Sequence record: MW394391.1
Direction: 5' to 3' (one strand)
DNA length: 64,000 bases
DNA from: Klebsiella phage vB_KpM_FBKp24
Below are positions 10,651-54,053 of the stretch, one piece after another. Made by a program: the position numbers and the translations under genes. Below the pieces are notes generated by a model. That model did no database searches. It worked only from the letters and a program-made list of their open reading frames with translations, and had not been told where the DNA came from. Every line of letters starts with the position of its first letter. The stretch's first letter is position 1.

Positions 10651-10676
10651 GGTGATATAGACTTTAAATGTAATCG
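10651..10676 (-). promoter_or_regulatory. recurrent phage promoter-like motif (minus strand: CGATTACATTTAAAGTCTATATCACC)
   Basis: One of seven copies of the core CTATATCAC motif; about 70 nt upstream of gene 10082..10588, immediately after terminator 10677-10712. Confidence 0.5.
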
Positions 10677-10712
10677 AAACAAAAAATAAAAGAGGGGCAT
10701 CTGCCCCTCTTT
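10677..10712 (-). terminator. intrinsic terminator hairpin
   Basis: agaggggca-tc-tgcccctct stem-loop followed by UUUUAUUUUUU on the minus transcript. Confidence 0.7.
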
Positions 10713-10724
10713 TATAGCGTTACC

Positions 10725-12029
10725 TTAGTTCAGTTTCCTGCGCTCCTGTACGACAATCTCCCCTTCTTTCAGGTAGATTTTCTTACGCGGTTTACGCAGG
10801 GCTTTCGCCAGCGAGATGTTTTCTGAAGGCGTGACTTCGAAAGCCGGGAGTCCAGCAGCAGCGCGAGCCTCAATGGCTTCCATCGGTGTAAGCAGACGGA
10901 AATGTAATGGTTCCCCCATGTAATGACGACCATCACGCATTAACGCCGGTTCGATCTGAGTTTTGTCAGTCAGGTTAGTGGTGATGATCATTTTACGTGT
11001 AATAGCGCTTCCTACGCCATCGGTTTCGTTCAGCAGTTCAGCCATCATTTCGTTACCATGGCTACGTGGTGCGATCAGAAGATCACCGTCTTCTACGATA
11101 ATCACCGGGAATGCGGGTTCTTTCCTTTTTACCCCAATTTCTACAGTGGGAAGATTAGGTTGAGTTGCCATCTGGTCAAATATTTTACGCTCTTTAAACA
11201 AAACATCGCGGCCTGCGCCGTTAATGACCTGCGCTTTCTCCATGTAATTGTCACTGAAGTTGAAGATAGAAGAAATGAAATCTTTGTATTCGATCACTTC
11301 CTTTTTCTTCACGTAGATCGGCATGAGATTCAGCGCTGTGGCCGCAGAAGAAATAGCCGTGGATTTCCCGGTACCGGGTTCGCCCATCAGGATCAGTACT
11401 GTTTCATCGGAAGCGATAAAGTCTTCGATGAGGTTAACAATCCCACCGTCAAGGTAGGGGTAAAATGCGTTGTGAGTATGGCCAGAGTGCTGAATTTCCT
11501 TTTTCTTCAACCCCAATCCCTCACCAAACATATTTTTCTCAATGACGGTCTCGTAATAGTAACGACTGTCGTCTTTTGGCGGCTCCGTCGTGTCAAGTTT
11601 GATGTTTTCACGGACAGCCGCCCATAAGGCGTCATAGAGATCTTTTGACAGAATACCAGAGAATTGCAGTAGCGTCTTCTCCCCGCCAAGCACACGAAGA
11701 AAACCGACAGGGCGATTGTAGCGGTCCAACGCGATAAACTGGTCGTCGTCGTACTGAAAGAAACCGTGTTTTTCCAGGAATACGGAAACCCACTGTGTTT
11801 CCGAGAAGTAGTGGATAGACGCGTTTATGTAGTCGCTGGAATCAAGACCAAAAATTGGTAATTGATTGGCGGCCAGAAAGTGACGCACCATATTTTTTGG
11901 AGAGAGCTCATCATTATCGTTGCCGACCAATGCAGCGAATGCATCATAAGCCTCAGCGAATGAATCAAAAACGTCATTCAGTAATTTGTGAGAGCGAGTG
12001 AGATTTGCTACAGCATTAGAATAAGACAT
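10725..12029 (-). CDS. AAA+ ATPase with N-terminal domain of unknown function (434 aa)
   Basis: Walker A GEPGTGKS, Walker B VIIVEDGD, and LLNETDG...ITTNL...EPALMRDGR segments typical of classic or BCS1-type AAA modules. Confidence 0.8.
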   Translation of the reverse strand: MSYSNAVANLTRSHKLLNDVFDSFAEAYDAFAALVGNDNDELSPKNMVRHFLAANQLPIFGLDSSDYINASIHYFSETQWVSVFLEKHGFFQYDDDQFIALDRYNRPVGFLRVLGGEKTLLQFSGILSKDLYDALWAAVRENIKLDTTEPPKDDSRYYYETVIEKNMFGEGLGLKKKEIQHSGHTHNAFYPYLDGGIVNLIEDFIASDETVLILMGEPGTGKSTAISSAATALNLMPIYVKKKEVIEYKDFISSIFNFSDNYMEKAQVINGAGRDVLFKERKIFDQMATQPNLPTVEIGVKRKEPAFPVIIVEDGDLLIAPRSHGNEMMAELLNETDGVGSAITRKMIITTNLTDKTQIEPALMRDGRHYMGEPLHFRLLTPMEAIEARAAAGLPAFEVTPSENISLAKALRKPRKKIYLKEGEIVVQERRKLN

Positions 12030-12083
12030 TTCGATTCCTCATTAAGTTAGTGAAAAATGAACTTTATGTTCGTTGTATCAATG

Positions 12084-12110
12084 CAGTGATATATAAGCAA
12101 AAATATTTTC
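12084..12110 (-). promoter_or_regulatory. recurrent promoter-like motif variant (minus: TTTTGCTTATATATCACTG)
   Basis: About 60 nt upstream of the AAA+ ATPase gene start (12029), just after terminator 12105-12141. Confidence 0.4.
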
Positions 12111-12141
12111 AAAATATAAGATGGAGAGGCAACGCCTCTCC
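12105..12141 (-). terminator. intrinsic terminator hairpin
   Basis: ggagaggc-aac-gcctctcc stem-loop followed by a U/A-rich tract on the minus transcript. Confidence 0.55.
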
Positions 12142-12146
12142 ATCGA

Positions 12147-12497
12147 TCAGTGAAAATATTGATAAGACCAAAACCCCAACCATACTGAGGCCATCACCAA
12201 AGTAAAAACATTTAGCATTACGCCAAGCATAGTTGCAAAAGTATTTTTCTGGTAATGACGACGGCGTATTAAGTACCCGGGGTAATAGAGCACCCAAAAG
12301 AAACTCGGCGAGTTACCAGTTTTATTCCCTAAAACAAATTTATCCATCGCTATCAGATAAGTCATCCAGAAGAAATAAATGACAGACATCAACCAAAGCG
12401 AATTAAACGGCCAAAAGGTAACGATGGGATGATAGGCCCAGAGAAAATAATAACCGAAGGTGAGCAGGTAGCCGAGCAGGAAAAAGAAATTCTTCAT
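12147..12497 (-). CDS. multi-pass membrane protein (about 116 aa from Met MKNFFFLLGYLL)
   Basis: Several hydrophobic helices; track ORF 12147..12623 is probably N-terminally over-extended into the neighbouring gene. Confidence 0.5.
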   Translation of the reverse strand: MKNFFFLLGYLLTFGYYFLWAYHPIVTFWPFNSLWLMSVIYFFWMTYLIAMDKFVLGNKTGNSPSFFWVLYYPGYLIRRRHYQKNTFATMLGVMLNVFTLVMASVWLGFWSYQYFH

Positions 12498-12961
12498 TGC
12501 AGGCACTGCGTAGAAAAACCGCGAAGGAAGCGAAAGATATCTTCCCGGGATTTCAGATCGGTTAACTCTTGCCATGGCGCTTCTTTCCAGAACTGAACTG
12601 AAAGCGAGTAGCGATTGATGCAACCCGCGTAACTGTCAACGTAAACGTTTAAACGGATAGCGAAGATACTGGAGAGTCGCGGAGTTTTGATTGGTAAACG
12701 AATGACAAAATTAGCGTAGGTGCCGCTGATCGACTCGAGAAAAGTTTCCGAGAAAAATTCCAGCTTCGGAAAATAATGCGGGTCGATATAAGGAGCTTTC
12801 AGAATATTGTTGCCGCCGCCCAACCAGTTTGCGGTATCTTTCAGGGACCGCAAGAACAGTTGTTTATTCCGTTCAGGAAAATCAGGGCGGTCCAATTTAA
12901 CGAACCCTAATAATTCTTTACCAAGAACAACTTTTGTATCAAATTTCATTATTTTCTCCAA
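12494..12961 (-). CDS. hypothetical protein (155 aa)
   Basis: ORF in gene train. Confidence 0.5.
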   Translation of the reverse strand: MEKIMKFDTKVVLGKELLGFVKLDRPDFPERNKQLFLRSLKDTANWLGGGNNILKAPYIDPHYFPKLEFFSETFLESISGTYANFVIRLPIKTPRLSSIFAIRLNVYVDSYAGCINRYSLSVQFWKEAPWQELTDLKSREDIFRFLRGFSTQCLQ

Positions 12962-16951: not shown

Positions 16952-17515
16952 TTAGAACCAATCCTCAATGACCCTTTCCAGGTCACCTACGCTACTACTC
17001 AACCATTTCGTTTCGTCCGTCCATTCTGTCCAAGGTTGAACTTCGTCTAACAAAGAACAACCTTTACGCACTTTGATAACGGAAAGATCGAGATTAAAAA
17101 CAATCTCGTGTTGAGTCAGTTGCAAATAGAAGATCCCCGTCTGTGATTCTTCATCCCAGTAGGTCCCGCTGGAGTAGGGTAAGGTAGAGCCCTCTTCATT
17201 TTTTCCTTGAACCCCTTCATCCCAAAATCGTTTTACCCATGGACCAGTTTCATCGAGATCTCTTTCAGCTCTGTCAGAAAAATCGATAAAGGTAAACTGC
17301 CACCGAGAAATGAGTTTTTTCATTTTCTCAACGAGGACTTTTCGGGTCAGGGGCTCTTCTGCAAATGTAGGCGAATTAAAGAGTGGTTCTTCTTTCCGTT
17401 CCATTTGCTCACGAATTTTCCCAGTGAGATCCCAGCGCTCGGTATGCTCCGCCAATTCACTTAGAATCTCGTCCACTACTTCACGAGTGAGTACAACCAC
17501 TTTATCGTTAAACAT
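16952..17515 (-). CDS. hypothetical protein (187 aa)
   Basis: ORF in gene train. Confidence 0.5.
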   Translation of the reverse strand: MFNDKVVVLTREVVDEILSELAEHTERWDLTGKIREQMERKEEPLFNSPTFAEEPLTRKVLVEKMKKLISRWQFTFIDFSDRAERDLDETGPWVKRFWDEGVQGKNEEGSTLPYSSGTYWDEESQTGIFYLQLTQHEIVFNLDLSVIKVRKGCSLLDEVQPWTEWTDETKWLSSSVGDLERVIEDWF

Positions 17516-17517
17516 CT

Positions 17518-17820
17518 TTAGAGCACCTTATTAATCAAATACAGTTTCACCCGGACAATAACTTCATGACAATAGTCGTTATCAGAGATCGCTTCTAAAG
17601 CAGAACATTCGATAGCAGTAAGAATCCTTCTTGGTTGCCACCCGCCTGCCAGCGCCGCATCAATGAATCCCGTCCAATCAATAGTGAATCCTGCGTTAAA
17701 TATTTTACCTACTGCGATATCTAACGGCAAACCGTGAGTAGCCACCAGGAAGAACAATTTATCTCCCGAGAACAAATTATTTTTCATTTCGCAATTTCCC
17801 TCCGATTGCATCGATTTCAT
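17518..17820 (-). CDS. hypothetical protein (about 90-100 aa)
   Basis: ORF; weak resemblance (THGLPLDIAVGKI...GFTIDW) to an alanyl-tRNA-synthetase segment, unverified. Confidence 0.4.
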   Translation of the reverse strand: MKSMQSEGNCEMKNNLFSGDKLFFLVATHGLPLDIAVGKIFNAGFTIDWTGFIDAALAGGWQPRRILTAIECSALEAISDNDYCHEVIVRVKLYLINKVL

Positions 17821-18304
17821 CCATCAAGGGCTTCAGTGCATAAAGGCCCTCAATCGCTTCTAACGAATGATCTGCCCGTAACCGAGACACACTCTCACGA
17901 TGACGTTCAAACCACTCAGCGTCCGTTTCAGGGACTTCTAAGATCTCCCACCAACGTGCGGTAGATTTCTTTTTCCGACCGAACCGTTTCCCTTCGCGAA
18001 GCTCTACTTCTTGAATAACAAAACGACCTCTCCCGGTGACTACTTCCTCGAGGTCACTGATGGGTGAATATTCTTCGGTGACGTTACCTGCCCACATCTC
18101 CTTGAAATTGATTTCCCAACGGCATCGACTGCCCCAAGCAAAATAAATCCCAGTAGTTTCGATTAAAATAACTTTGCCATTTTCAGAGGTAAATGATGCC
18201 GCCGGGGAAACGCCTCGCCGGAACCAAGTGCGGCTACCAATGATTAACATTTTACCGTGTTCACTGGAGACAAACGAGGCTAAGATCATTATTTTATTCT
18301 CCAC
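17777..18304 (-). CDS. hypothetical protein (175 aa)
   Basis: ORF in gene train; overlaps the 5' extension of the downstream ORF. Confidence 0.45.
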   Translation of the reverse strand: MENKIMILASFVSSEHGKMLIIGSRTWFRRGVSPAASFTSENGKVILIETTGIYFAWGSRCRWEINFKEMWAGNVTEEYSPISDLEEVVTGRGRFVIQEVELREGKRFGRKKKSTARWWEILEVPETDAEWFERHRESVSRLRADHSLEAIEGLYALKPLMDEIDAIGGKLRNEK

Positions 18305-18723
18305 ATTCTGCGGGCTATACGTCGCTCTGCCGGACTCGTTGGCTCATGACTGCCAGTATTGTAAACGTCGAATAAATAATCACCTGTACCTTCTTCTATT
18401 AAAATCTTTCTTCCTGAGCGAAAAAATTCTGCGCGAGATTTTCGCTCATGGTCGTAAACACTTTCTATTTCCTCTACCGAGACACCAAAAACCGCACCCA
18501 GTTCTTCTAAACGCAAACCGGAGGAAATTGCTTTTTCAATGTCGACCCCGATGAGCCTCTCCGAAATTTCGAAGCGCTCCTGTCTGTGCCGGTCCATCAT
18601 TTCATGTTGCGCCTTAACAAGTCGACCTAAACTACTGTCCCAAAAATCGTCGTAGTTTGACATTTTATTCTCCGGTATCCATTGCGCCTTGGATGAGATT
18701 ATCGAGTTCCACAAATTCTTCAA
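18289..18723 (-). CDS. helix-turn-helix protein with sigma-70 region-4-like segment (144 aa)
   Basis: ERFEISERLIGVD...LRLEELGAVFGVSVEEIESV resembles sigma-70 region 4. Confidence 0.4.
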   Translation of the reverse strand: MKNLWNSIISSKAQWIPENKMSNYDDFWDSSLGRLVKAQHEMMDRHRQERFEISERLIGVDIEKAISSGLRLEELGAVFGVSVEEIESVYDHERKSRAEFFRSGRKILIEEGTGDYLFDVYNTGSHEPTSPAERRIARRMWRIK

Positions 18724-19069
18724 ATGTGGTATTTAAGTCCATAGACCCTGACATTTGGTAGTTACGGAAATTATGATACCGCTGCTCTTGATCGGTAAGA
18801 GGAGTGTATTCACCTCTCCCCTTTTTAATTTCCATTTTATAAATTTTTCGGCGATTAAGGCTCGTCAAAATACTGTCTTGAAGAGCAGTCAGACGTTGGA
18901 TGGTGATGGTTTTATCTGTTACCCGAAGCCGTGTGTCTTGTAAAGAAGATAAATTGTCACCGTTCGGCGTCACGATAATTAAATTAGGACGAGAGGCACA
19001 AAACTCACGGATTCTTTTCAGGAGACTTGTCAAAGACTCATCATTCATTTTGTTTTCCTCAGGTGCCAT
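18665..19069 (-). CDS. hypothetical protein (134 aa)
   Basis: ORF in gene train. Confidence 0.45.
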   Translation of the reverse strand: MAPEENKMNDESLTSLLKRIREFCASRPNLIIVTPNGDNLSSLQDTRLRVTDKTITIQRLTALQDSILTSLNRRKIYKMEIKKGRGEYTPLTDQEQRYHNFRNYQMSGSMDLNTTFEEFVELDNLIQGAMDTGE

Positions 19070-19377
19070 TGTACAATGATTTCTTCGTAAAGTTTATTTG
19101 CTGATTCTTGGTCGTGAAAATGAAACCACTCGAAATTGCTGGGGTTGGAATAATAAAGTACCCCGATGGACGGTTTAGATTCACCCCAGAGCGGGAAATG
19201 TTTTTGAATAGGTGGCGTGACATGTACCAATTCATCGAAATTGACGACACGGCCATTGATCACAATTTTCTTTAGGTTAGTATCGGCCATGTTATGAAAC
19301 CCCCTTGTTAAGAGTGAAATGAATATGAGACTGGACGACGGTATTCTAACTTTCTTTTGCCCGGGTTGCGAGACCAC
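19045..19377 (-). CDS. hypothetical protein; true start probably Met MADTNLKK at about 19290
   Basis: ORF; the N-terminal extension overlaps the plus-strand gene start. Confidence 0.4.
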   Translation of the reverse strand: MVSQPGQKKVRIPSSSLIFISLLTRGFHNMADTNLKKIVINGRVVNFDELVHVTPPIQKHFPLWGESKPSIGVLYYSNPSNFEWFHFHDQESANKLYEEIIVQWHLRKTK

Positions 19378-19657
19378 CCATTCTGTTTCGGTCGAACCAA
19401 CTGACCCTTGTTACTGGACGTGGAATGGGTCGTTAGAGAAACCAACGTTATCTCCGAGTGTTTTGACCCGCTCCGGTCATTACGTGGACGGTAGTCATGG
19501 TTGCTGGTGTAACTATTATACCGCGCACCCGGAAGAAGAAGTTGTCTTTAAGTGTTATCGCTGCCACAGCTTTATCCGCGACGGCAATATTGAATTCCTT
19601 TCTGACTGCAGCCATAAATTGGCAGGGCAGACTGTTCCTTTAGATCCATTAAAGTGA
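19319..19657 (+). CDS. zinc-ribbon-like small protein (112 aa) on the plus strand
   Basis: Two CxxC pairs (FFCPGCETTH ... FKCYRCHSF); 112 stop-free codons where no minus ORF of 60 aa or more exists; followed by bidirectional hairpin 19667-19692. Confidence 0.5.
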   Translation: MNMRLDDGILTFFCPGCETTHSVSVEPTDPCYWTWNGSLEKPTLSPSVLTRSGHYVDGSHGCWCNYYTAHPEEEVVFKCYRCHSFIRDGNIEFLSDCSHKLAGQTVPLDPLK

Positions 19658-19667
19658 TATAGGCGTG
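19652..19667 (-). promoter_or_regulatory. recurrent promoter-like motif (minus: CACGCCTATATCACTTT)
   Basis: Follows the bidirectional hairpin 19667-19692; oriented antisense to the plus gene 19319..19657. Confidence 0.35.
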
Positions 19668-19692
19668 AAACAGGGTCGATACGACCCTGTTT
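19667..19692. terminator. bidirectional hairpin between convergent plus and minus genes
   Basis: aaacagggtcg-atac-gaccctgttt stem-loop, U-rich on both strands. Confidence 0.55.
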
Positions 19693-19704
19693 CCGTTTGT
19701 GCTA

Positions 19705-21096
19705 CTAACCCACTTTTTTCATAGTAGAATAACTGACCGCTTCCACGGGTTTAGTGACATCATATTCCCGCAAGGCAATTTCAAAGGTCTCAGGGCTATG
19801 TTTATTTAACATGAACAACGCCTGTACTGAGGCACCCGGTAAAGGCGGGAAAGGAACTGGACTACGGGGTTCTGCATCAGGAAACGCCATTTTGAAGAAG
19901 CGGCGAATCTCTTTGTCCCCCAGAACTTCAACCTCTACACGAATGTCAATTCTACCATCCCTTAGAATTGCATCGTCCAGTTTCTCAGGGTGATTCGTGG
20001 TCAAGAACACAATGACATCATTCAGACGCATTACGCCATCTAGTGCGTTGAGGAAATCAGACAAACTCCCATTCAGGTATTCGTCCATTGCCTTGTCGTC
20101 TGATTTCGTTTCTTCTAATGTCCCCGGTACCCCGTGAGGCATTTCGATAACATTCAACCCAGACGACTCTTTTTCCTTTTCTTTTAATTCAACTATTGTC
20201 TTTTCTTTACTGCGTGCTTTCGTAAAAGAGTAAGTATCAATATCCTCGATGATGACAACACCACCCGCCGCGCGCTGGAATAATGCCTGATATTGTAATC
20301 CGCCGCTCGGTTTAAGGGTATGAATGTTACGACCTAAAGCCCCAGCCAGTGCGGAAATAAGACTGCTCTTACCAGTGCCAGGTAGCCCATAAAGTAATAC
20401 TGTAAATTTATAAGGTAATCCCCGCGAATGGTACCACTCTTTACTCCGACTAAATTCAAAGACGGGTTCAATCAATCCTTTTTGTACATTATCAGTAACA
20501 ACAATAGTGTCCAGGCTCCGCTTAGGGAGACGGCAGAGGTATTCCCAATTGGCGGTATTGTTGACAAATGCACCGACTGTATTTTTAGTGTCACTTTTCA
20601 CCATGAACGCATCCATCAGTTCGAGTATTGCCTTATGGCTTCGCCCAAACTTACTGATACTCAACCGGTATTTAGAAGCATTAGACGCATTGGCGTCTAT
20701 TTCAATGATTTTAAATACAAAGAGCGTACCGCGATAGAAAAAGAAATGAGAACCCACACCCGGACCTACCGCGCCGTCCGTCCCACTACTTTCCCCATCG
20801 ATAGTAATCGTTCTGCTCCAGTGAAACCAACTGTTCAATGAGAACCAATTAAGGAAGGCAGTGTACTGCTCTGAGTTATAATTAGTCCAGTTGGTGCTGG
20901 CAGTATTGAAAATCAAACTGGTAACGAATTGCCTTTTAACCCACTGAATCACCGCTTTGGGGGTTTTGATTAAACCCCAACCGATTGCGCCTGAGACAGC
21001 TAAAGAACTCGCAGTAACAATCGCGTTCTGTGCCATGGGGTAATCTTTAAAGTTAGACAATATATGGTCGTAAAACGACATTAGCTGTTCAAGCAT
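19705..21096 (-). CDS. BCS1-like AAA+ ATPase with N-terminal hydrophobic segment (463 aa)
   Basis: LLYGLPGTGKSSLISALAG, VVIIEDID, NALDGV...VIVFLTTNHPEKLDDAILRDGRIDIRV match the BCS1 pattern; N-terminal stretch AIVTASSLAVSGAIGWGLI. Confidence 0.8.
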   Translation of the reverse strand: MLEQLMSFYDHILSNFKDYPMAQNAIVTASSLAVSGAIGWGLIKTPKAVIQWVKRQFVTSLIFNTASTNWTNYNSEQYTAFLNWFSLNSWFHWSRTITIDGESSGTDGAVGPGVGSHFFFYRGTLFVFKIIEIDANASNASKYRLSISKFGRSHKAILELMDAFMVKSDTKNTVGAFVNNTANWEYLCRLPKRSLDTIVVTDNVQKGLIEPVFEFSRSKEWYHSRGLPYKFTVLLYGLPGTGKSSLISALAGALGRNIHTLKPSGGLQYQALFQRAAGGVVIIEDIDTYSFTKARSKEKTIVELKEKEKESSGLNVIEMPHGVPGTLEETKSDDKAMDEYLNGSLSDFLNALDGVMRLNDVIVFLTTNHPEKLDDAILRDGRIDIRVEVEVLGDKEIRRFFKMAFPDAEPRSPVPFPPLPGASVQALFMLNKHSPETFEIALREYDVTKPVEAVSYSTMKKVG

Positions 21097-21149
21097 TGAT
21101 AATCTCCGTTACACTGGTCTGGTCGTAGCATAAGGTTACATTCCGCCGT

Positions 21150-21190
21150 AAAAAGCAAAAAAAAAAGAGGAGGGAAATCCCTCCTCTTTT
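21150..21190 (-). terminator. intrinsic terminator hairpin
   Basis: aagaggaggga-aat-ccctcctctt stem-loop followed by a U10 run on the minus transcript. Confidence 0.75.
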
Positions 21191-21193
21191 AGC

Positions 21194-21358
21194 TTATTCT
21201 AAATCGTTGAGTTCCTGACGCACGATCTTTTTATTGATACGACGCTCGGCGCGGTGAGTGAGCAACTTGGAGTACGGTCCCGGAATAGTCGGATTACCTG
21301 GGCGGGCGCTCCAATATTCTTGGCTCTGAGCCTTACTGCCGCGTTTGGTTCTTGCCAT
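21194..21358 (-). CDS. small basic protein (54 aa, MARTKRGSKAQSQEYW...); alternative to track ORF 21199..21414
   Basis: AGGA ribosome-binding site 7 nt before ATG, Lys/Arg-rich, ends just before terminator 21150-21190; the overlapping 71-aa track frame has no ribosome-binding site and an odd composition. Confidence 0.35.
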   Translation of the reverse strand: MARTKRGSKAQSQEYWSARPGNPTIPGPYSKLLTHRAERRINKKIVRQELNDLE

Positions 21359-21417
21359 CTTTTGAGTCCTCGAGTTGAAGTATGTAATCGAGGACGGACT
21401 TGAAAGTAATGCATAGC

Positions 21418-21801
21418 TTACCCCGCTGTAAATATTAAGAGTTTCTGATCAAAGTCAAAGTCTTGATGCCGAGCCATCAAAAAAGTTGAGAGTCCTTCAT
21501 AGTCGTTCCATCGATCGTCGTTCTGTTCATTGCTACACGCAATAATTTCAGAAATAATCATTGGGATATCTTCCTTACTAACAACCCACGGACCCAGTTC
21601 GTCGTTAGGGCAGATATTAACCCGTGCCATAATTTCAACTAGTGTACGCTGATTCTTCCACGTCGCTAGCCTTTTAGGCGCCACCGCGTCGTCATCGAAA
21701 ACTTCGTCGTATTCAAGTGTTTTCCCTACACCATCTTCGCCTGTAACCGGTTCCGGTACAGTCTCTTTATCGACCGAATAAAACGTGAGATAAAAGCCCA
21801 T
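21418..21801 (-). CDS. hypothetical acidic protein (127 aa)
   Basis: ORF downstream of the macrodomain gene in the same unit. Confidence 0.5.
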   Translation of the reverse strand: MGFYLTFYSVDKETVPEPVTGEDGVGKTLEYDEVFDDDAVAPKRLATWKNQRTLVEIMARVNICPNDELGPWVVSKEDIPMIISEIIACSNEQNDDRWNDYEGLSTFLMARHQDFDFDQKLLIFTAG

Positions 21802-22167
21802 CTATTCTCCGCCCCAGAAATAAGTTAAGATTGAATCAAAGTCAGCAATCTCCCAGAAAGTATCCAATTCAAGCCACGAGTCGATAATATCTAAGGGACC
21901 TTCTTTCATCCATTTGTCCAGTAACTCCCGAATCTCTTCGCCTGTTAAAACGAAGTGTATTCCTGGACGAGGGAGATTGTATTTGGCTTGTACCAGTTTA
22001 TGAAAATCTTCTGCCTGTACCCCGCTGATCCCTCTCATCGCTAACACCGGACCAAGGTGATGGCCGTAGGTTAAATACTGACGAGTCTCTCCTGCTTCAG
22101 TTTCGTAGGTAGCGATCTTTTCAGGAATAACACGGTCACGCTGAAATTCTCTGAGCTCAACGAACAT
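21802..22167 (-). CDS. hypothetical protein (121 aa)
   Basis: ORF in the same unit as the macrodomain gene. Confidence 0.5.
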   Translation of the reverse strand: MFVELREFQRDRVIPEKIATYETEAGETRQYLTYGHHLGPVLAMRGISGVQAEDFHKLVQAKYNLPRPGIHFVLTGEEIRELLDKWMKEGPLDIIDSWLELDTFWEIADFDSILTYFWGGE

Positions 22168-22172
22168 AGTCT

Positions 22173-22646
22173 TTAACCCTCAAACCGATAGACGATAATT
22201 TCAAAATCAGTATCCGAAAAAACCCGCTTGATATTTTCACTCACGCGCTCCCAGTCACCACCTGCTAACCCGCACCCCAATAGAGGGAAACCGACTTTTA
22301 AAACCCTCCCTTCCTTTTTCAGGATAGAGGCCATTAGTTTCAACGCCAGATAAAGAGCAGCGTAATGGGTTTTATAGTCAGGGTGCGAATGTTCGTGATG
22401 AAATTGACCACAAAGGTTGAAGCCCCATTGATTCCCATTCTTAGCAGCAGTTAATTTCCCCAAGCGTTTGTTGTAAGGGCGCTTATCGGAAAAGTAAGAT
22501 TCCGCTAACCAAGGCAATGCTTCGAATATTTTAACAGCAATACCGCTCTTAGCGACCCCAAAGCAATTGACTTGGTGGGCTATGACGTCAACTTCCTTAT
22601 TAAGAAAGGCTTCAATCAAATCCCCTTTTATTTCAGTGTATTTCAT
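22173..22646 (-). CDS. macrodomain protein, TARG1/OARD1/DarG-like (157 aa)
   Basis: KGDLIEAF...VDVIAHQVNCFGVAKSGIAVKIF and VGFPLLGCGLAGGDWERVSENIKRVFSDTDFEIIVY align closely with the TARG1-type macrodomain (GDLF..AHCIS.DCRMGAGIAV ; MPRIGCGLDRLQWENV...ITVY). Confidence 0.8.
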   Translation of the reverse strand: MKYTEIKGDLIEAFLNKEVDVIAHQVNCFGVAKSGIAVKIFEALPWLAESYFSDKRPYNKRLGKLTAAKNGNQWGFNLCGQFHHEHSHPDYKTHYAALYLALKLMASILKKEGRVLKVGFPLLGCGLAGGDWERVSENIKRVFSDTDFEIIVYRFEG

Positions 22647-22664
22647 AGCCCGCTCTCGCCGTGG

Positions 22665-23282
22665 TTAATTGATGATGAATTTACATTTTTCGAGGTGGTA
22701 TTCTTTCCCGCCAAAGCAGAGTTTCTTAACGTAATCCGGACGAGGGAGATTAACGTTCTCTGTGTAGGCGTTATGGGATACTAACGACTTGTTAACGACT
22801 TCGCCTTTGTTGTATTCAACGAGCCGACCGGGGAATTCTTGGGAAAAACCAAACCCCGAGAATTTCAATTTTACATGCGAATGAAAAGAGAGATTTCGCC
22901 AACCTGGGAATTTCAACCCTTTCACGTGGGCAGCGATAAAACGAATCAACGCAGTGTAAACTTTACCCAGTTCACCCGTGGTAATGACTTCGTCTTCGTT
23001 ACCGAAACGGAAGATGACTTTGGAATCGTGACCATCTTTATTACGGTACCAGTCGACGACAAAACGAGAGTAGTAACCGTAGAGACCATTCTCTGGCGTA
23101 CTGCGGTTACGGTAAGACTGCGCCGTATCGGAGTCGTACCGGTAGCACGTATTGTGCTCAAAAGGCTGACCCCGTCTGAAACCGATGAACTGCGCGAGCT
23201 GGACCGCCTGGATTAATGTCAGGTGTACGATCGTACCTAACTTGTTAGTAAGAATAAAGATAGGACTTGAAGCTGTTTGCAT
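22665..23282 (-). CDS. hypothetical protein (205 aa) immediately upstream of the TARG1-like macrodomain
   Basis: ORF; no confident catalytic motif; candidate ADP-ribosyltransferase by context only. Confidence 0.55.
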   Translation of the reverse strand: MQTASSPIFILTNKLGTIVHLTLIQAVQLAQFIGFRRGQPFEHNTCYRYDSDTAQSYRNRSTPENGLYGYYSRFVVDWYRNKDGHDSKVIFRFGNEDEVITTGELGKVYTALIRFIAAHVKGLKFPGWRNLSFHSHVKLKFSGFGFSQEFPGRLVEYNKGEVVNKSLVSHNAYTENVNLPRPDYVKKLCFGGKEYHLEKCKFIIN

Positions 23283-23287
23283 TCGTT

Positions 23288-23887
23288 TTACTCCTGCAGC
23301 AGTTTGGTTATTTCACCAATGAACTCGGAATGGTCTTCTATTTTATCTCGACCAATCTCCGAGCCCGTAATTTGATCATCAACATAACGAGAGACCAAGG
23401 CGTTGATTTTCCCAGCGGGACTGGAAAGGAATTCATCTGACTCAGCGTAATCAGCATTCCAGTTACGAATATAGAATGAAGGGTTAAAGGTCTCTGTCGT
23501 TCGGAAGTCAGGGAGTTTACCCACCATTAAAAGTTCCAACGAAGGAGAATAATGTACACCGTATTCAGTTCGACCGGTGTACTCGTTAAGTTCTGCCTTT
23601 GCCCAAATATTAAAACTGTCTATAATCCATACCCTGCTACATTTTAGAGCAATCTCCCTTTTCCAATCAGCAAGCGGGCCGTCTTGTAACATCGCTGAAA
23701 TATGCTCGTCGCTCATTATGACTTCGTAATAGTTCCGCCGGTTGAAATCTTCTAATCTCCTTTTTAAAAGGGAAAACAGATTCTGCTGCTCGGCGCTGAT
23801 AAAAGCGTCGTAATACTTATTGGTAATAAGATCTCTTTCTACTTCTGACAGCGGTTCTTTAAGAAAACCGAGTTTTGTTCTGGACAT
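23288..23887 (-). CDS. hypothetical protein (199 aa)
   Basis: ORF in gene train. Confidence 0.5.
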   Translation of the reverse strand: MSRTKLGFLKEPLSEVERDLITNKYYDAFISAEQQNLFSLLKRRLEDFNRRNYYEVIMSDEHISAMLQDGPLADWKREIALKCSRVWIIDSFNIWAKAELNEYTGRTEYGVHYSPSLELLMVGKLPDFRTTETFNPSFYIRNWNADYAESDEFLSSPAGKINALVSRYVDDQITGSEIGRDKIEDHSEFIGEITKLLQE

Positions 23888-33867: not shown

Positions 33868-34355
33868 TAGTTATTCTCCAGATGGATACGAATTTTAAAA
33901 TCAACAAACGGTGTAATCTCTTGTCCATTGAGTAAGAGGGGCGTGGTGTAGTCAGTTATTATTCTAAACGCCCGTAACTCAAAACCAATGATTATGGTGA
34001 AATCAACCACCACACCTTCTCTGAATACAGAGAATGTTTCTCTAGGAACATTCCCTAACCCAGTACTACGGAGAATCATCTCGTTAGTACTTACGAATGT
34101 TGTAGTGATAGGTGAGTCGCTTTCCGGGTCTTTCCATAAACGACTCACCGAAAGGACTTCGATACTGGTAATTCTCTTGTTGTCTGGAACAATATTTTTC
34201 AGTTTGTGGATGCGGTCGTCTGAGATCGTTAAATCGAAGAAAGGGACATCAGCATTTTCAAGTTTTGGGTCGTTCAATAACCTTTGAGTTTCCTTTACTT
34301 TAGCACTATCGCTGAGATTACTAGCCATGATTCTTCGAATATCGTCAAGTAACAT
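33867..34355 (-). CDS. hypothetical protein (162 aa)
   Basis: ORF downstream of promoter-like motif 34387-34412. Confidence 0.5.
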   Translation of the reverse strand: MLLDDIRRIMASNLSDSAKVKETQRLLNDPKLENADVPFFDLTISDDRIHKLKNIVPDNKRITSIEVLSVSRLWKDPESDSPITTTFVSTNEMILRSTGLGNVPRETFSVFREGVVVDFTIIIGFELRAFRIITDYTTPLLLNGQEITPFVDFKIRIHLENN

Positions 34356-34386
34356 TTTGTTCTCCTTTAATTTTCCTCTACATCTA

Positions 34387-34412
34387 AGTGATATAGACTT
34401 GAAAACGAATCG
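34387..34412 (-). promoter_or_regulatory. recurrent promoter-like motif (minus: CGATTCGTTTTCAAGTCTATATCACT)
   Basis: About 35 nt upstream of gene 33867..34355, immediately after terminator 34411-34464. Confidence 0.5.
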
Positions 34413-34464
34413 AAAAAAAAAACAATACAGTAACCTCTCCCTCTGGCCTAGGCCAGAGGGAGAG
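34411..34464 (-). terminator. intrinsic terminator hairpin
   Basis: ctctccctctggcc-taggccagagggagag stem-loop followed by a U10 run on the minus transcript. Confidence 0.75.
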
Positions 34465-34469
34465 TACGG

Positions 34470-34877
34470 TTAAAGTTGTACGCCTAACGCTGCCGCAACG
34501 ACGACCGCAACGAAGATCGAAAGAATACCGGAAAGGATATACCAGACAAACCACAGGCGGGAGTTACCGTTGCGATTCTGGCGCTTGTAAATGTAGACCG
34601 GTGCGATCAACCACCACCAGGCAGACGGAACGAAAGCGCCTTCTTTTTTCAGTGACTCACGGTCGTAGACGAACCACACGGTAAACAACACCAGCGAGAT
34701 CAGCCAGCCGATGGACGGCAGCGCGACCTGAATCGCAGTGAAGATCGGTTGTGAGAAAATGATGAAGAGCATGAAGAACGGCGTCATCAATTGAGGCAGG
34801 GTGCCTTTCTTGAAGAAGATGTGGCCGTTGTTATCGCGGAATTGATTATCGTTCAAATTGATGGTATCGGTAGACAT
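34470..34877 (-). CDS. multi-pass membrane protein (135 aa)
   Basis: Three or four hydrophobic helices; own promoter-like motif upstream and terminator downstream. Confidence 0.55.
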   Translation of the reverse strand: MSTDTINLNDNQFRDNNGHIFFKKGTLPQLMTPFFMLFIIFSQPIFTAIQVALPSIGWLISLVLFTVWFVYDRESLKKEGAFVPSAWWWLIAPVYIYKRQNRNGNSRLWFVWYILSGILSIFVAVVVAAALGVQL

Positions 34878-34944
34878 ATATTGACTCGCTTATGTAAGTG
34901 TGTTTAAAGGGTAAATTTTAAGTTTACTATCTCAATTGCATAAT

Positions 34945-34965
34945 AGGGATATAGATGTCAAATTT
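34945..34965 (-). promoter_or_regulatory. recurrent promoter-like motif variant (minus: AAATTTGACATCTATATCCC)
   Basis: About 60 nt upstream of membrane protein gene 34470..34877. Confidence 0.4.
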
Positions 34966-35506
34966 GTTTGATATCGAGTTCGGGGATAGGCATTTCACGA
35001 AAGATACATTCGTTCTCTACTACTGCCCCTAAACCACCTTCCGCATAAACAGCCTTTAACCCGCGTTTCTGATACCGGCGTTTACCGATGGGGGTTTCTG
35101 ACATGCTGTCATTAGTGAAGAGAAGAAATATTCTTTTCCCATCAAAGTCAGTGTAGAGAGAATAGTCCGTTTCGACCCCTTCCTCTTCACCATCCTCGGC
35201 AAAGCAGAAATCAACAACACCCATTGATATTAACCAGAAGAGGCGCTTGTACTCCCCCAGAAGTTTCGTGTCATCGAGGAGTATTTCCCCGGGTTGGTTG
35301 ATCCTCTCCACGATACTTGCATCGATCAGTTCTGCGTTAGGTTCTTCGGGATCGTACAGATCAGAAAGTATATCCCATGCCCCATCTCTTCCAACGCTGA
35401 CAAAAAGAAACTGATCATTGTCTTCATCGTACATCACCTTGAGACAGTCTTTCTCGATCAGACTTAAAGCGGTACGATACTTTTCTAATAAAGATTCGTT
35501 TTCCAT
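34958..35506 (-). CDS. hypothetical acidic protein (182 aa)
   Basis: ORF in gene train. Confidence 0.5.
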   Translation of the reverse strand: MENESLLEKYRTALSLIEKDCLKVMYDEDNDQFLFVSVGRDGAWDILSDLYDPEEPNAELIDASIVERINQPGEILLDDTKLLGEYKRLFWLISMGVVDFCFAEDGEEEGVETDYSLYTDFDGKRIFLLFTNDSMSETPIGKRRYQKRGLKAVYAEGGLGAVVENECIFREMPIPELDIKQI

Positions 35507-38989: not shown

Positions 38990-39027
38990 ATAGAAAATAA
39001 AAAAGGAGAGGCGAAAGCCTCTCCTTT
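38990..39027 (-). terminator. intrinsic terminator hairpin
   Basis: aaggagaggc-gaaa-gcctctcctt stem-loop followed by a U-run on the minus transcript. Confidence 0.7.
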
Positions 39028-39042
39028 TATTCAGCGATAGGG

Positions 39043-44332: not shown

Positions 44333-44375
44333 AAGAAATAAAATAAAGAGAGGGAGGGAATTTTCCCTCCCTCTC
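44333..44375 (-). terminator. intrinsic terminator hairpin
   Basis: gagagggagggaa-tttt-ccctccctctc stem-loop followed by UUUAUUUUAUUU on the minus transcript. Confidence 0.7.
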
Positions 44376-44378
44376 CGG

Positions 44379-45014: not shown

Positions 45015-45304
45015 TTTTTATTTACCTCGCGGGTCAGTTGCCGAAAACTGAGTCTTTGCCCCAGTTTGATCGTACGGATGGGGAGTTCGATCGAACCGCA
45101 GGCGTTAGCCACAATCGTTCCCGTTGGTGTCCCTACGACCGCGGTGAACTCATCGGGTTCTTTTTCGATTAAGTTAGATGCGGCCAAAAAGAGTGCGTCA
45201 TTGCTCGCCATCAGGCGCAATTCGGACTCATTAATGATATCGCCGATATACGGATATTTTGTGTCCCCAATCGGCTGAGTTTTACTGACCTTTTTAGCGA
45301 TCAT
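45011..45304 (-). CDS. hypothetical protein (97 aa)
   Basis: ORF with 4-nt overlaps on both sides. Confidence 0.45.
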   Translation of the reverse strand: MIAKKVSKTQPIGDTKYPYIGDIINESELRLMASNDALFLAASNLIEKEPDEFTAVVGTPTGTIVANACGSIELPIRTIKLGQRLSFRQLTREVNKK

Positions 45305-45735
45305 TCTTTACCTCCGTCAATGACAGAGAACGGATTGGCTTTTTTCATCGGGGTAACGTTGTCCGTCGAAGTTACTGGATCAACTTCTTCTTTCCCTGTG
45401 ATCACAGGGTACGGCAGCGCTAAATTCTGGTCGCTGGTATCCGGGTTGAGGACAACGCGTACTTTATCCCATGAAAAGGTGTCGCTGGCTAATTTACCGC
45501 CGAATCGACCCTCGAAAAACAACCCTTCATCAAAAGATTGTAGCTGGCAGGAATGCGGAGAAATGTTGAGTACTAAATACTCGTACCCCTCGACGTCGGG
45601 TGTGGGTTTAATAAAGCTCCGTAAAATGGGGTTAGTACTGATACATTTACCATTAAGGGCAATAAAAATTCGGTTCCCTTGATCACAGTGCCATTTATAA
45701 GCTGCGTCGAAAAGTGCTTTGTTCAGTGAGGACAT
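45301..45735 (-). CDS. SspB-like protein (putative ClpX adaptor homolog, 144 aa)
   Basis: KALFDAAYKWHCDQGNRIFIAL, YLVLNISPHSCQ...FEGRFGGK and C-terminal SVIDGGKE parallel E. coli SspB (AFYEWLLDN..., IVLNIAPRAV...FNARFGGI, SVIDGDKP). Confidence 0.5.
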   Translation of the reverse strand: MSSLNKALFDAAYKWHCDQGNRIFIALNGKCISTNPILRSFIKPTPDVEGYEYLVLNISPHSCQLQSFDEGLFFEGRFGGKLASDTFSWDKVRVVLNPDTSDQNLALPYPVITGKEEVDPVTSTDNVTPMKKANPFSVIDGGKE

Positions 45736-45759
45736 TTGATTCTCCTTGGATTGGTTTCA

Positions 45760-46275
45760 TTAGGGTGATATAGTCTTCAAAATGCTTCGAGTTTCTTCCC
45801 AGAATTGGACTAACCATTCCCCACTCTTAGGCGTCACTACTTTGACGTTGTCTTCCCAAACCCTCGCGCCCTTCTCCATTCGCCAGTCCCCAAAAACGTA
45901 GTAGTGCGTAAAGGGTAATTCTGACGCAATAAGCGCGTTGTATTGGTGGCGGTAAGCGTTGAGTTTTGCGAGATTGGCAGATTTAATAATCGAGAGAAAA
46001 TCTGGGTGCTGAATAATCTCTAATTTCTTACCGAACGCTTTGGCTTCATTCCCCCACAATCCGCGAAGGTATTGATGTTTGAAGCCTGTTTTCGCGTAGT
46101 ACCAAAACCCCTCCATACTTTCAAAGTTTCCGTATTCGGGATGCTCAAATGGCGTGCGAGGAAAATGCGAAAGAAAGAAGCCCAGTCGGTTCTTTGACTT
46201 GGAATAAATGTTGATGTGGTCGATGCCATCATTGTTTGGGTCGAAAGTCATCAGGTGCCACCTTATTGTACGCAT
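45760..46275 (-). CDS. NADAR (YbiA/DUF1768)-like protein (171 aa)
   Basis: INIYSKS...GFFLSHFPRTPFEHPEYGNFESMEGFWYYAKTGF resembles the NADAR core of E. coli YbiA (INFYS..GDFSNF...WPTSEHYFQAQKF). Confidence 0.5.
   Translation of the reverse strand: MRTIRWHLMTFDPNNDGIDHINIYSKSKNRLGFFLSHFPRTPFEHPEYGNFESMEGFWYYAKTGFKHQYLRGLWGNEAKAFGKKLEIIQHPDFLSIIKSANLAKLNAYRHQYNALIASELPFTHYYVFGDWRMEKGARVWEDNVKVVTPKSGEWLVQFWEETRSILKTISP
45765..45790 (-). promoter_or_regulatory. recurrent promoter-like motif (minus: CGAAGCATTTTGAAGACTATATCACC)
   Basis: About 35 nt upstream of the SspB-like gene; embedded in the last codons of the NADAR-like gene. Confidence 0.5.
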
Positions 46276-52522: not shown

Positions 52523-52531
52523 TAATTTACA

Positions 52532-52933
52532 TTATTCGTCGTCTTCGAAGTCTTCCGGTCCAGATTGGTAGTCGTCGTCTTCGTCGTCTTCGTCAAAATC
52601 ATCGAGGTCTTCTTCATCGAGAAGATCCGGATCGGTCTCTTCGAGGTACCAGTCGTTATCGGCCAGTAACGCATTGAAAGAATCGCTACCCGCTTCGATT
52701 AACGCTTCGGTGACGGCCCCGGAATCGTTTTCGGTAACACTCACAACGGTGAGGTCTTCCCCGTCAACGCTTTTGTCGGCGACGTCCGGTTTGTACAACT
52801 CGAATCCTATCTGAGTGTTAACTGTTTCCAACGTCTCAGAAAGATCCAGCGGATCGACGGGTCGGCCATTTTTATCAGTGACTTCGAACGTTTCTTCTTC
52901 GGTATTGAATTTCAGGATTGTGCGGTGGGTCAT
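52532..52933 (-). CDS. highly acidic small protein (133 aa), candidate DNA mimic
   Basis: Asp/Glu-dominated throughout; C-terminus DLLDEEDLDDFDEDDEDDDYQSGPEDFEDDE. Confidence 0.5.
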   Translation of the reverse strand: MTHRTILKFNTEEETFEVTDKNGRPVDPLDLSETLETVNTQIGFELYKPDVADKSVDGEDLTVVSVTENDSGAVTEALIEAGSDSFNALLADNDWYLEETDPDLLDEEDLDDFDEDDEDDDYQSGPEDFEDDE

Positions 52934-53259
52934 TTCCAGTCCTCTTGTTTACGTTTAAGGAAAAGTGCATCGATTACCTTGAGATCAATGGCGATCACTT
53001 CGGTATCGGCATGGGGTTGTAAAAAGTAAAGCGATAGGGTTTCGGTGTCCGTCAATTTTCCAACGACATTAAAAAGAACACCATTAACCATTCCACTAAC
53101 GCCGGTTTTCAGGTTTAGGGCAACGATTAATTGTCGTCCTAATAGGTCACAATTATTTCCAGGGTATTCATTTTTTAACTTAAATAAAACACGGGAAATC
53201 TTTTCTTGCCATTTCGGGATGACAAGCTGTAAGAGTTCGGTTCGAGTGAGAGCTAACAT
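52930..53259 (-). CDS. hypothetical protein (109 aa)
   Basis: ORF, ATGA overlap with the acidic protein gene. Confidence 0.45.
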   Translation of the reverse strand: MLALTRTELLQLVIPKWQEKISRVLFKLKNEYPGNNCDLLGRQLIVALNLKTGVSGMVNGVLFNVVGKLTDTETLSLYFLQPHADTEVIAIDLKVIDALFLKRKQEDWK

Positions 53260-53373
53260 ATTTTTACCTGGTGTGATTTTTCTTCATAATAACTTTGCGT
53301 TATTTTTGATGTTTTTAGGTCGGGAAAAAATGAAGGGTTATTGGTATGTGAACACCAAAAACTAACAAGGTAA

Positions 53374-53595
53374 ATGACAAAGATGAGTCTCGCAATTATT
53401 CCTACTACAGCACAAAAGATCGTGGAAATTACTCGTAGCAAAATCGACCCAAATGCAGTAACGCTAATTTTTGAAGACGGTAAAGACGAAACCTTTTTGG
53501 ACTGGTTTGTTCAGAAACACAAACCCGCAGTAGGTCGTTTCTTGGCGAAAGATGTGGAAGGATTTACGCACGTCATCGACAGTATTGAAGCTTAA
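53374..53595 (+). CDS. small plus-strand protein (70-73 aa)
   Basis: Only plausible ORF in a 340-nt stretch with no minus ORF; AAGG ribosome-binding site before the second ATG; followed by bidirectional hairpin 53608-53637. Confidence 0.45.
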   Translation: MTKMSLAIIPTTAQKIVEITRSKIDPNAVTLIFEDGKDETFLDWFVQKHKPAVGRFLAKDVEGFTHVIDSIEA

Positions 53596-53607
53596 AACAA
53601 GATACAG

Positions 53608-53637
53608 ATTGGTGAGGGGTTAATTCCCCTCACCAAT
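53608..53637. terminator. bidirectional hairpin between the plus gene 53374..53595 and the minus gene 53638..53883
   Basis: attggtgagggg-ttaatt-cccctcaccaat stem-loop. Confidence 0.55.
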
Positions 53638-53883
53638 CTACTCTATGTTTGTATTTAAAACGTCTTGCTCGGAATAGAACTTATCTTCTACTACGCTGTC
53701 AAACGCCATAGAACGCATCAGGAGCGATTCAACTGGTCTATGGTAATAAACCTTATTATCCCAGGGAGGAAGCAAATTAGAGAGCAATAAGGCGGCTTCC
53801 GTGACCAACGGTAAATTGTCATCGGGTACAAAAGAAAGTGCTTCGTCCAATGCTTCGAGCAAAACATGGCGGGGGGTAAACAT
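53638..53883 (-). CDS. hypothetical protein (about 81 aa from Met MFTPRHV)
   Basis: AAGGACGA ribosome-binding site before this ATG; the track N-terminal extension would encode through a terminator hairpin. Confidence 0.45.
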   Translation of the reverse strand: MFTPRHVLLEALDEALSFVPDDNLPLVTEAALLLSNLLPPWDNKVYYHRPVESLLMRSMAFDSVVEDKFYSEQDVLNTNIE

Positions 53884-53899
53884 TACGTAATCGTCCTTA

Positions 53900-53936
53900 T
53901 TAAAAAAGAATAAGGTGAGGACCGAAGTCCTCACGC
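53900..53936 (-). terminator. intrinsic terminator hairpin with UUCG tetraloop
   Basis: gtgaggac-cgaa-gtcctcac followed by CUUAUUCUUUUUU on the minus transcript; lies downstream of promoter-like motif 54031-54053. Confidence 0.6.
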
Positions 53937-54030
53937 TCATTTGTCTTCACTGAATGTCTCGTCATTAACCGGCACTGTGAATAACAGTTAATTAAGAGTT
54001 TCCGAGGGTGTCTTATTTCCTCATCACACT
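53900..54030 (-). ncRNA. candidate short transcript (about 125 nt) or leader RNA
   Basis: Region bounded by promoter-like motif 54031-54053 and the UUCG terminator 53900-53936, with no ORF; purely structural inference. Confidence 0.25.
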
Positions 54031-54053
54031 AGTGATATAGATGTGAAAAAAGG
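54031..54053 (-). promoter_or_regulatory. recurrent promoter-like motif (minus: CCTTTTTTCACATCTATATCACT)
   Basis: About 20 nt after the tailspike stop (54060); followed about 100 nt later by terminator 53900-53936. Confidence 0.45.

Follow-up and report, generated by a model that had tools for sequence, protein, structure and literature searches.

A conserved element of about 37 bp in a Klebsiella jumbo phage as the probable early promoter of a phiKZ-like virion RNA polymerase

The genome of Klebsiella phage vB_KpM_FBKp24 (MW394391.1) carries a recurrent, promoter-like element upstream of a subset of its genes, which raises the question of which RNA polymerase reads it and at what stage of infection. 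The window analyzed here is a 64-kb stretch of this ~300-kb jumbo phage genome; all open reading frames (ORFs) of any size within it lie on the minus strand, so that minus-strand copies of the element are co-oriented with the genes. An earlier note, made from the window sequence, had described seven such copies and proposed that they define a phage-specific promoter class. We find that the seven elements are most probably early promoters read by the virion-packaged multisubunit RNA polymerase (vRNAP) of a phiKZ-like jumbo phage (Chimalliviridae, Siatvirus-like).

The relatives of the phage provide the frame for this reading. Over 20 kb, the window is 94% identical to Klebsiella phage vB_KpM_Centimanus (299,730 bp), and it shows ~80% identity to a group of ~300-kb Klebsiella/'Serratia' phages including KpLz-2_45 (hereafter KpLz), which is placed in the genus Siatvirus of the Chimalliviridae in the NCBI taxonomy. 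The complete genomes of Centimanus and KpLz were used for all genome-wide censuses. The Centimanus annotation lists a nuclear shell protein, the tubulin PhuZ and seven 'RNA polymerase beta subunit' fragments. Its shell protein (chimallin) matches phrog_4795, 'nuclear shell protein' (E = 4e-44), and BLASTP searches against phiKZ proteins assigned homologues of subunits of both the vRNAP and the non-virion RNA polymerase (nvRNAP) (Table 1). Because of the identity to Centimanus and KpLz, together with these shell, PhuZ, nvRNAP and vRNAP homologues, the window is assigned to a phiKZ-like nucleus-forming jumbo phage predicted to have two RNA polymerases of its own. Rfam and tRNA scans of the window revealed no RNA genes.

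The 9-mer CTATATCAC is present in the window in five exact copies, all on the minus strand (10652, 19654, 34388, 45765 and 54032), against a chance expectation of 0.27, and none of 100 shuffles reached five. With one mismatch the total in the window is 12, which is not above chance (9.9). Among these, however, ATATATCAC at 12086 and CTATATCCC at 34946 are set in the same flanks as the exact copies, and in all seven copies, exact or not, a G stands exactly six bases past the 9-mer. The other one-mismatch matches (3437, 40316, 55285 and those on the plus strand) were rejected as sites, scoring below 8 bits with the matrix described below; those at 3437, 40316 and 55285 have neither the flanking motif nor the N6-G. 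In a strand-specific census of 8-mers in the intergenic DNA of Centimanus (7.2% of the genome), TATATCAC was, T-runs set aside, the most intergenic-concentrated 8-mer, with 19 of its 23 gene-strand copies intergenic and only two copies on the other strand. A position weight matrix (PWM) covering -34..+3 was built from these 19 sites of the sister genome. It detects exactly seven sites in the window, scoring 23.9–45.3 bits, whereas random genomes, 20 in all, yielded no score above 14.5 bits. The number of copies given in the earlier note is thus confirmed, and the three 26-mers that it quoted are found verbatim in the window.

The proposed length of 20–26 nt, by contrast, was an underestimate, as the element extends over ~37 bp and includes an invariant T-1 G+1 and a TCSA block at -32..-29. 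In the 19-site alignment it comprises a -30 block, T.TCSA at -34..-29 (T-34, T-32, C-31, C/G-30, A-29), followed by five unconstrained positions; a -20 block, TTTNANGTM at -23..-15 (TTT at -23..-21, A-19, G-17, T-16, A/C-15); a -10 block, TATATCAC at -14..-7; and a start region with Y-6, T-4, A-3, W-2, T-1, G+1, A+2 and A+3. The -10 block is invariant across the 19 seed sites and is found in six of the seven window sites, the remaining one having TATATCCC. T-1 and G+1 are each present in 19 of the 19 sites, although they lie outside the seed, and both are found in all seven window sites as well.

Genome-wide, the matrix gives 27 gene-strand sites in Centimanus and 29 in KpLz; the only match on the plus strand, in KpLz, is at chance level (11.8 bits). 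The KpLz sites score at least 14.4 bits, and all except the weakest exceed the random maximum. Each of the 27 Centimanus sites is followed by a co-oriented gene, whose start codon lies 23–141 nt past the predicted +1 (median 61), except at one site, where the distance is 355 nt and the annotation doubtful. Moreover, 25 of the 27 cores fall in annotated intergenic DNA (binomial P ~1e-26). In the window, too, a co-oriented ORF follows every copy, but the previously given spacing of 35–90 nt holds only approximately (Table 1).

The genes behind the Centimanus copies are informative as to timing. Three copies directly precede four nvRNAP subunit genes, one of them also heading the chimallin gene (Table 1), and among the 27 sites none lies before the vRNAP genes at 17248-23374 or 103690-105057. 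Presence before nvRNAP but not vRNAP genes is what a first temporal class would be expected to show, since the nvRNAP cannot transcribe its own genes before it exists.

The element is also under apparent constraint. All 27 Centimanus sites and all seven window sites have a positional orthologue among the KpLz sites, even though the downstream proteins are only 36–88% identical. In the 27 orthologous pairs, aligned without gaps and anchored at +1, positions -14..-10, -7 and -1 are 100% identical and +1 is 93% identical, as opposed to 44–63% in the spacer at -6..-4 and ~45–60% in the flanks. Conservation thus tracks the information content of the motif, a footprint of selection and not of recent common descent.

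Comparison with phiKZ links the element to a known class. In the first 100 kb of phiKZ, the pattern TATAT[TC]AC-N5-TG occurs 12 times on the gene strand and not once on the other. One copy is located 66 nt ahead of the ATG of PHIKZ054, which encodes chimallin, with its core at 45568 and its G at 45582, another precedes the nvRNAP subunit gene PHIKZ068 (G at 57998, 27 nt upstream), and the copy before PHIKZ010 has exactly the TATATCAC core. This phiKZ motif, TATATTAC-N6-G, is what we take, on the basis of the phiKZ sequence, to be the phiKZ early promoter. Its consensus and that of the Siatvirus sites have the same base, in the same register, at 14 of 16 jointly informative positions, the disagreements being at -34 and -9. 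The shared architecture consists of T-32, A-29, TTT at -23..-21, A-19, TATAT.AC at -14..-7 and T-1 G+1; in both cases all copies are on the gene strand and copies stand before the orthologous chimallin and gp68 genes. Copy numbers are similar as well, with 27–29 in Centimanus and KpLz and 28–32 early promoters, read by the virion RNA polymerase, in phiKZ (Ceyssens 2014, Wicke 2021, Putzeys 2024; PMC8244752, PMC10914365, PMC13282480). The differences are few: position -9, which is C in every one of the 19 seed sites of the Siatvirus motif, is T in 10 of the 12 phiKZ copies, C-31 and G-17 are poorly conserved in phiKZ, and A-3 of the Siatvirus motif contrasts with a preference for A at -5 and -4 in phiKZ. 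The host is Klebsiella, the genome has a GC content of ~44% against 37% in phiKZ, and the elements described here are predicted from sequence.

Published data on other phages of this kind fit the same layout. The early promoters of phiKZ-related phages are AT-rich elements, strongly conserved and with their centre near -10; in phiKZ and phiR1-37 the conserved transcription start site (TSS) is located 6 nt downstream of the consensus element (PMC5312081, PMC7598289). In phage AR9 the early consensus is AAATATATATTAT-N6-G+1 (PMC5312081, PMC7598289); as in the Siatvirus motif, a strongly conserved -10 block that contains TATAT extends to -7 and is separated by 6 nt from a G at the start, and its ~40 copies precede early genes and are read by an injected multisubunit vRNAP (PMC5312081). 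The AR9 block is, however, longer and purely A/T, without the cytosines at -9 and -7, and no -20 or -30 blocks have been described; furthermore, AR9 DNA contains uracil and the phage forms no nucleus. Conserved blocks at -10, -20 and -30 have been reported for the early promoters of phiKZ and 201phi2-1 (PMC11512511), a three-block layout that, going by its description, is the same as ours. In 201phi2-1, not every nvRNAP gene has an early promoter nearby (PMC11512511), in contrast to the three copies that precede four nvRNAP genes here. A full-text literature search for TATATCAC and TATATTAC returned only unrelated primer and construct papers.

Taken together, the earlier proposal of a phage-specific promoter class holds, but the class is not a new one, given the same-register match to the motif identified as the phiKZ early promoter. 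The Siatvirus-like Klebsiella phages join the known early-promoter class of the Chimalliviridae with a few lineage-specific positions, which is an expected find. In the mechanism that we propose, the multisubunit vRNAP would be injected together with the DNA, would recognize the ~37-bp element through its blocks near -30 (T.TCSA), -20 (TTTNANGTM) and -10 (TATATCAC), and would initiate at the invariant G six bases past the core, with no need for host RNA polymerase, a sigma factor or a newly made phage protein. Each promoter would open a transcription unit of mostly small early genes, and about half of the promoters would directly follow the terminator of the preceding unit, forming compact terminator–promoter junctions.

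Several points weigh against this interpretation. The G as start site, the early timing and the vRNAP as reader are all drawn from homology. The letter-level phiKZ early consensus was derived here from the phiKZ sequence, and when applied to 100 kb of phiKZ the Siatvirus matrix detects only six sites, against 0.75 expected, a modest yield due mostly to the C/T difference at -9. The genes for chimallin and the RNA polymerases lie outside the window and are seen only in Centimanus, the 94%-identical relative. Given 201phi2-1, the argument from the nvRNAP genes is supportive and not universal. Finally, an early unit would not be expected among tail-fibre genes, where promoter 7 is located.

The last point bears on the alternative that fares best, namely that the motif is a middle or late promoter read by the nvRNAP. 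The enzyme is encoded, as seen via Centimanus, and some nvRNAP genes of 201phi2-1 are under middle promoters (PMC11512511). The middle and late motifs of phiKZ, however, are TACT near -22 after an A-run and TATG at the start site, respectively (PMC8244752, PMC7598289), and it is neither of these but the element before PHIKZ054 and PHIKZ068 that our motif matches. A separate TTATGA(C) motif, described below, fits a late class better, and the four nvRNAP subunit genes directly behind copies cannot depend on the nvRNAP for their first transcription. We consider this alternative improbable.

Still less probable is that host RNA polymerase reads the motif, either as an unusual sigma-70 promoter or redirected by a phage sigma-like or helix-turn-helix (HTH) protein. 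The A/T-rich element near -10 is a feature shared with sigma-70 and T4 late promoters; TATAT is similar to the first bases of a -10 hexamer, and hexamers of the TTTAAA/TTGACA type are present at -23..-18. Instead of a -35/-10 pair separated by 16–18 nt, however, the Siatvirus motif has two conserved blocks 3 nt apart, and its conserved cytosines at -9 and -7 fall where sigma-70 requires A/T and T. Scans for sigma-70 promoters gave 20 and 23 sites, no more than shuffles (15.6 and 21.3), and none of them coincided with any of the seven elements. All strong sites have TATATCAC as their core and not the T4 late TATAAATA box, so that the earlier note was right to set both classes aside; the far higher information content, over ~37 conserved-register positions, is typical of phage-polymerase promoters. 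The same note had suggested as readers two small proteins resembling sigma region 4, encoded by ORFs 6406-6639 and 18289-18723. Both contain an HTH-like stretch, but this suggestion did not hold up: neither has a Sigma70_r4 match in Pfam at E <= 10 or a match in PHROGs. ORF 6406-6639 gives a weak, sub-threshold HTH_DeoR match (E = 0.009; 16.2 bits against a cutoff of 21), and ORF 18289-18723 gives nothing in Pfam. Because both ORFs lie inside units that would be driven by these promoters, we infer that their products could not start the cascade unless packaged in the virion. Moreover, chimalliviruses are reported to lack sigma homologues and to begin transcription with the injected virion RNA polymerase, and phiKZ-type infection is rifampicin-insensitive (PMC13282480, PMC7598289).

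Equally improbable is that the element is no promoter at all and serves instead as the operator of a DNA-binding regulator or acts at the RNA level, as a processing site or part of a leader. In favour of this, what is seen here is conservation of sequence, and two copies, overlapping coding 3' ends, are surely transcribed through. The strict placement 23–141 nt ahead of co-oriented genes, however, is that of a promoter, roughly half of the sites come right behind strong hairpins, of which several are terminators and would stop RNA reading through from upstream, PHIKZ054 with the equivalent motif has a primary TSS, enriched by terminator exonuclease (TEX) treatment, that was assigned to the early promoter motif (PMC8244752), and the invariant spacing of T-1 G+1 matches the mapped starts of AR9, phiKZ and phiR1-37 (PMC5312081).

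Table 1. Predicted early promoters, neighbouring hairpins and late-like motifs of the window, with RNA polymerase genes and selected promoter copies of Centimanus
Feature	Genome	Coordinates	Strand	Sequence	Score or energy	Context
Early promoter 1	window	10643..10679	-	TTTCGATTACATTTAAAGTC-TATATCAC-CTTAAT-G	PWM 45.3 bits	predicted +1 G 10645, 57 nt before ATG of ORF 10082-10588; orthologues Centimanus 247570, KpLz 13342
Early promoter 2	window	12077..12113	-	core ATATATCAC	PWM 23.9 bits	predicted +1 G 12079, 50 nt before AAA+ ATPase ORF 10725-12029 (AAA domain match); orthologue KpLz 14781 (before gp027), none in Centimanus
Early promoter 3	window	19645..19681	-		PWM 35.5 bits	predicted +1 G 19647, 32 nt before small ORF 19448-19615; orthologue KpLz 18665, before gp034
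Early promoter 4	window	34379..34415	-		PWM 38.7 bits	predicted +1 G 34381, 26 nt before ORF 33867-34355; orthologues Centimanus 267618, KpLz 31303
Early promoter 5	window	34937..34973	-	core CTATATCCC (CTATATCAC in KpLz)	PWM 24.7 bits	predicted +1 G 34939, 62 nt before ORF 34470-34877; overlaps stop codon/last codons of upstream ORF 34958-35506
Early promoter 6	window	45756..45792	-		PWM 40.0 bits	predicted +1 G 45758, 23 nt before ORF 45301-45735; embedded in 3' end of ORF 45760-46275, whose TAA stop is at -4..-2; orthologues Centimanus 278353, KpLz 42918
Early promoter 7	window	54023..54059	-		PWM 30.4 bits	predicted +1 G 54025, then 142-nt conserved leader before ORF 53638-53883; between tail-spike/fibre genes; orthologue KpLz 51181, with TATATTAC core
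Intrinsic terminator hairpin	window	10686..10715	-	ATAAAAGAGGGGCAGATGCCCCTCTTTTAT + T-run	dG -20.4	ends AAA+ ATPase unit
Intrinsic terminator hairpin	window	12120..12144	-	GATGGAGAGGCGTTGCCTCTCCATC + TTATATTTTG		just upstream of promoter 2
Palindromic hairpin, 12-bp stem	window	19667..19693		GAAACAGGGTCG-ATA-CGACCCTGTTTC	dG -20.7	no strand assigned
Strong hairpin	window	34435..34464	-	CTCTCCCTCTGGCCTAGGCCAGAGGGAGAG	dG -26.4	upstream of promoter 4
phiKZ gp71 + gp73 homologue	Centimanus	137496-139769				nvRNAP
phiKZ gp74 homologue	Centimanus	135529-137496				nvRNAP
phiKZ gp55 homologue	Centimanus	149782-151236				nvRNAP
phiKZ gp68 homologue	Centimanus	143426-144967				nvRNAP
phiKZ gp80 homologue	Centimanus	103690-105057				vRNAP
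Promoter copy	Centimanus	153289				directly before chimallin + gp55-like operon
Promoter copy	Centimanus	144995				directly before gp68-like gene
Promoter copy	Centimanus	139839				directly before gp71/73 + gp74-like gene pair
Late-like motif	window	58693-58699		TATGA(C)		before tail-fibre ORF 55902-58649
Late-like motif	window	53282-53288		TATGA(C)		before ORF 52930-53259
Late-like motif	window	5178-5184		TATGA(C)		before ORF 4811-5143
Late-like motif	window			CTATGAC		~40 nt upstream of ATG at 60936
Late-like motif	window			CTATGAA		~45 nt upstream of ATG at 52400

The junctions with preceding units bear out the earlier note in large part. It had placed four copies shortly behind intrinsic terminators, with the T-run at the position of a -35 hexamer. 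The T-run does enter the conserved upstream block, that of the terminator at 10686..10715 reaching into the -34 block of promoter 1. Terminators are canonical before the predicted starts at 10645 and 12079; the other two cases deviate, one of them being atypical. Before 34381, a T10 run starts 12 nt past the stem of the hairpin at 34435..34464 and ends at the -34 block of promoter 4. The terminator scan missed this hairpin because of the delayed T-run, and it probably terminates the single-gene unit 34470-34877. Before 19647, the hairpin at 19667..19693 overlaps the promoter, its 3' arm forming the upstream half of promoter 3, and has no T-run on the minus strand. It lies past the stop of ORF 19705-21096, was called on the plus strand by the scan and is kept in KpLz, with differences confined to the loop. 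In Centimanus, a strong hairpin is found in the 100 nt ahead of about half of the sites, a proportion that is an undercount, as only even lengths and a strict T-tail rule were used and the 25-nt hairpin at 12120-12144 was itself missed. In the terminator stems, the 5' arm is rich in purines and the 3' arm in pyrimidines (GGAGAGG...CCTCTCC, GAGAGGGG...CCCCTCTC), a type found in the window at 10686-10715, 12120-12144, 34435-34464, 39001-39028 and 44347-44376 and across the Centimanus genome. In the latter, 11 of 12 gene-strand copies of GAGAGAGG are intergenic, and the stems form a stereotyped terminator family.

Three of the window promoters have neighbourhoods worth describing. One self-contained cassette is that of the AAA+ ATPase gene (10725-12029), which has an early promoter and a terminator (10686-10715) to itself and is flanked by the terminator with which the preceding unit closes (12120-12144). 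Because promoter 2 has a counterpart in KpLz but not in Centimanus, the cassette looks moron-like, gained or lost between close relatives. Promoter 3 is overlapped by the equivalent of a plus-strand 'hypothetical protein' coding sequence (CDS) of Centimanus (253594-253926), which corresponds to 19319-19657 (+) of the window. This CDS is antisense to small minus-strand ORFs, KpLz has the minus-strand gp034 annotated after the orthologous promoter, and the plus-strand CDS may be a mis-annotation. The leader behind promoter 7 (53884-54025, minus strand) is unusually conserved, its first ~77 nt being nearly identical in KpLz. It ends with a hairpin at 53915-53934, GTGAGGAC-TTCG-GTCCTCAC, followed by a T-run to 53902; in KpLz the hairpin shows compensatory changes (CAGGGAC...GTCCCTG) and a weaker T-run. 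An alternative ATG at 53940 would place the hairpin within a longer ORF. The leader could be a prematurely terminated early leader or a small RNA, comparable to the short 5' untranslated region (5'UTR) RNAs reported for phiKZ (PMC10914365).

A variant form of this early promoter, having the core TATATTGC/TATATAGC and a near-identical upstream AATGCAGTTTTTTTGATGTA, occurs in divergent intergenic regions only (Centimanus 172307, 193964 and 216843; KpLz 238930, 259886 and 281705; none in the window). At Centimanus 193964 and 216843 the complementary strand reads ...AAAAAAACTGCATTTCGATTC..TATGA before a plus-strand gene, and these sites look like back-to-back early(-)/late-like(+) promoter modules. 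A T-run followed by TATGA(C) is a second recurring upstream motif, often located directly behind a terminator hairpin (Table 1). In Centimanus, 28 of the 108 copies of TTATGA are intergenic, compared with 7.8 expected (P = 2e-9). The genes behind this motif lie on both strands, among them tail-fibre genes and plus-strand genes beside early units, and the motif is similar to the late promoter of phiKZ, T-3 A T G+1, which the nvRNAP reads; its sites are probably the late promoters of the phage.

A strict 17-base pattern of the early motif retrieved only seven loci from IMG/VR, two of them from a KpLz-like 302-kb genome. The extended motif (e.g. TTTCATTTCAATTTTACACC-TATATCAC-CTTAATGGA) is found in metagenomic viral contigs of 36–196 kb without nucleotide similarity to Siatvirus, namely L016 (two copies ~2.3 kb apart), L018, L020 and L021. 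Weak protein-level similarity to Siatvirus genes was detected for L016 and L021, with L021 encoding a homologue of the 'polymerase' whose gene lies behind the copy at Centimanus 72845, and none was detectable for the remaining contigs. This hints that the TATATCAC version of the promoter may be distributed more widely than a Siatvirus-like genus.

A bolder extension of the vRNAP early-promoter interpretation, which we regard as rather unlikely, is that the shift in vRNAP specificity relative to phiKZ (C and not T at -9, C-31, G-17) has produced a naturally orthogonal polymerase/promoter pair and that some copies have acquired extra roles. Promoter 7 would then yield a conserved, prematurely terminated early leader RNA of ~110–125 nt among the tail-fibre genes, and the TATATTGC/TATATAGC copies, fused to opposite-strand TATG late promoters, would act as an early-to-late switch.

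For a poorly annotated Klebsiella jumbo phage, the early promoters provide a usable transcription map, with seven early units in the window and ~27 in the genome. The map marks the hypothetical genes that are probably expressed first, including candidates for host take-over and anti-defence functions, and Centimanus, the closest relative (94% identical), belongs to a therapeutic cocktail under study. For engineering, the 37-bp consensus would be a ready-made early-expression cassette for such phages. Overall, the architecture of the phiKZ early promoter appears to be conserved at single-base register from Pseudomonas to Klebsiella phages, which constrains how a sigma-less virion RNA polymerase recognizes DNA, and the positions that differ between the lineages, -9, -31, -17 and -3, are a small set of candidates for the determinants of polymerase specificity.

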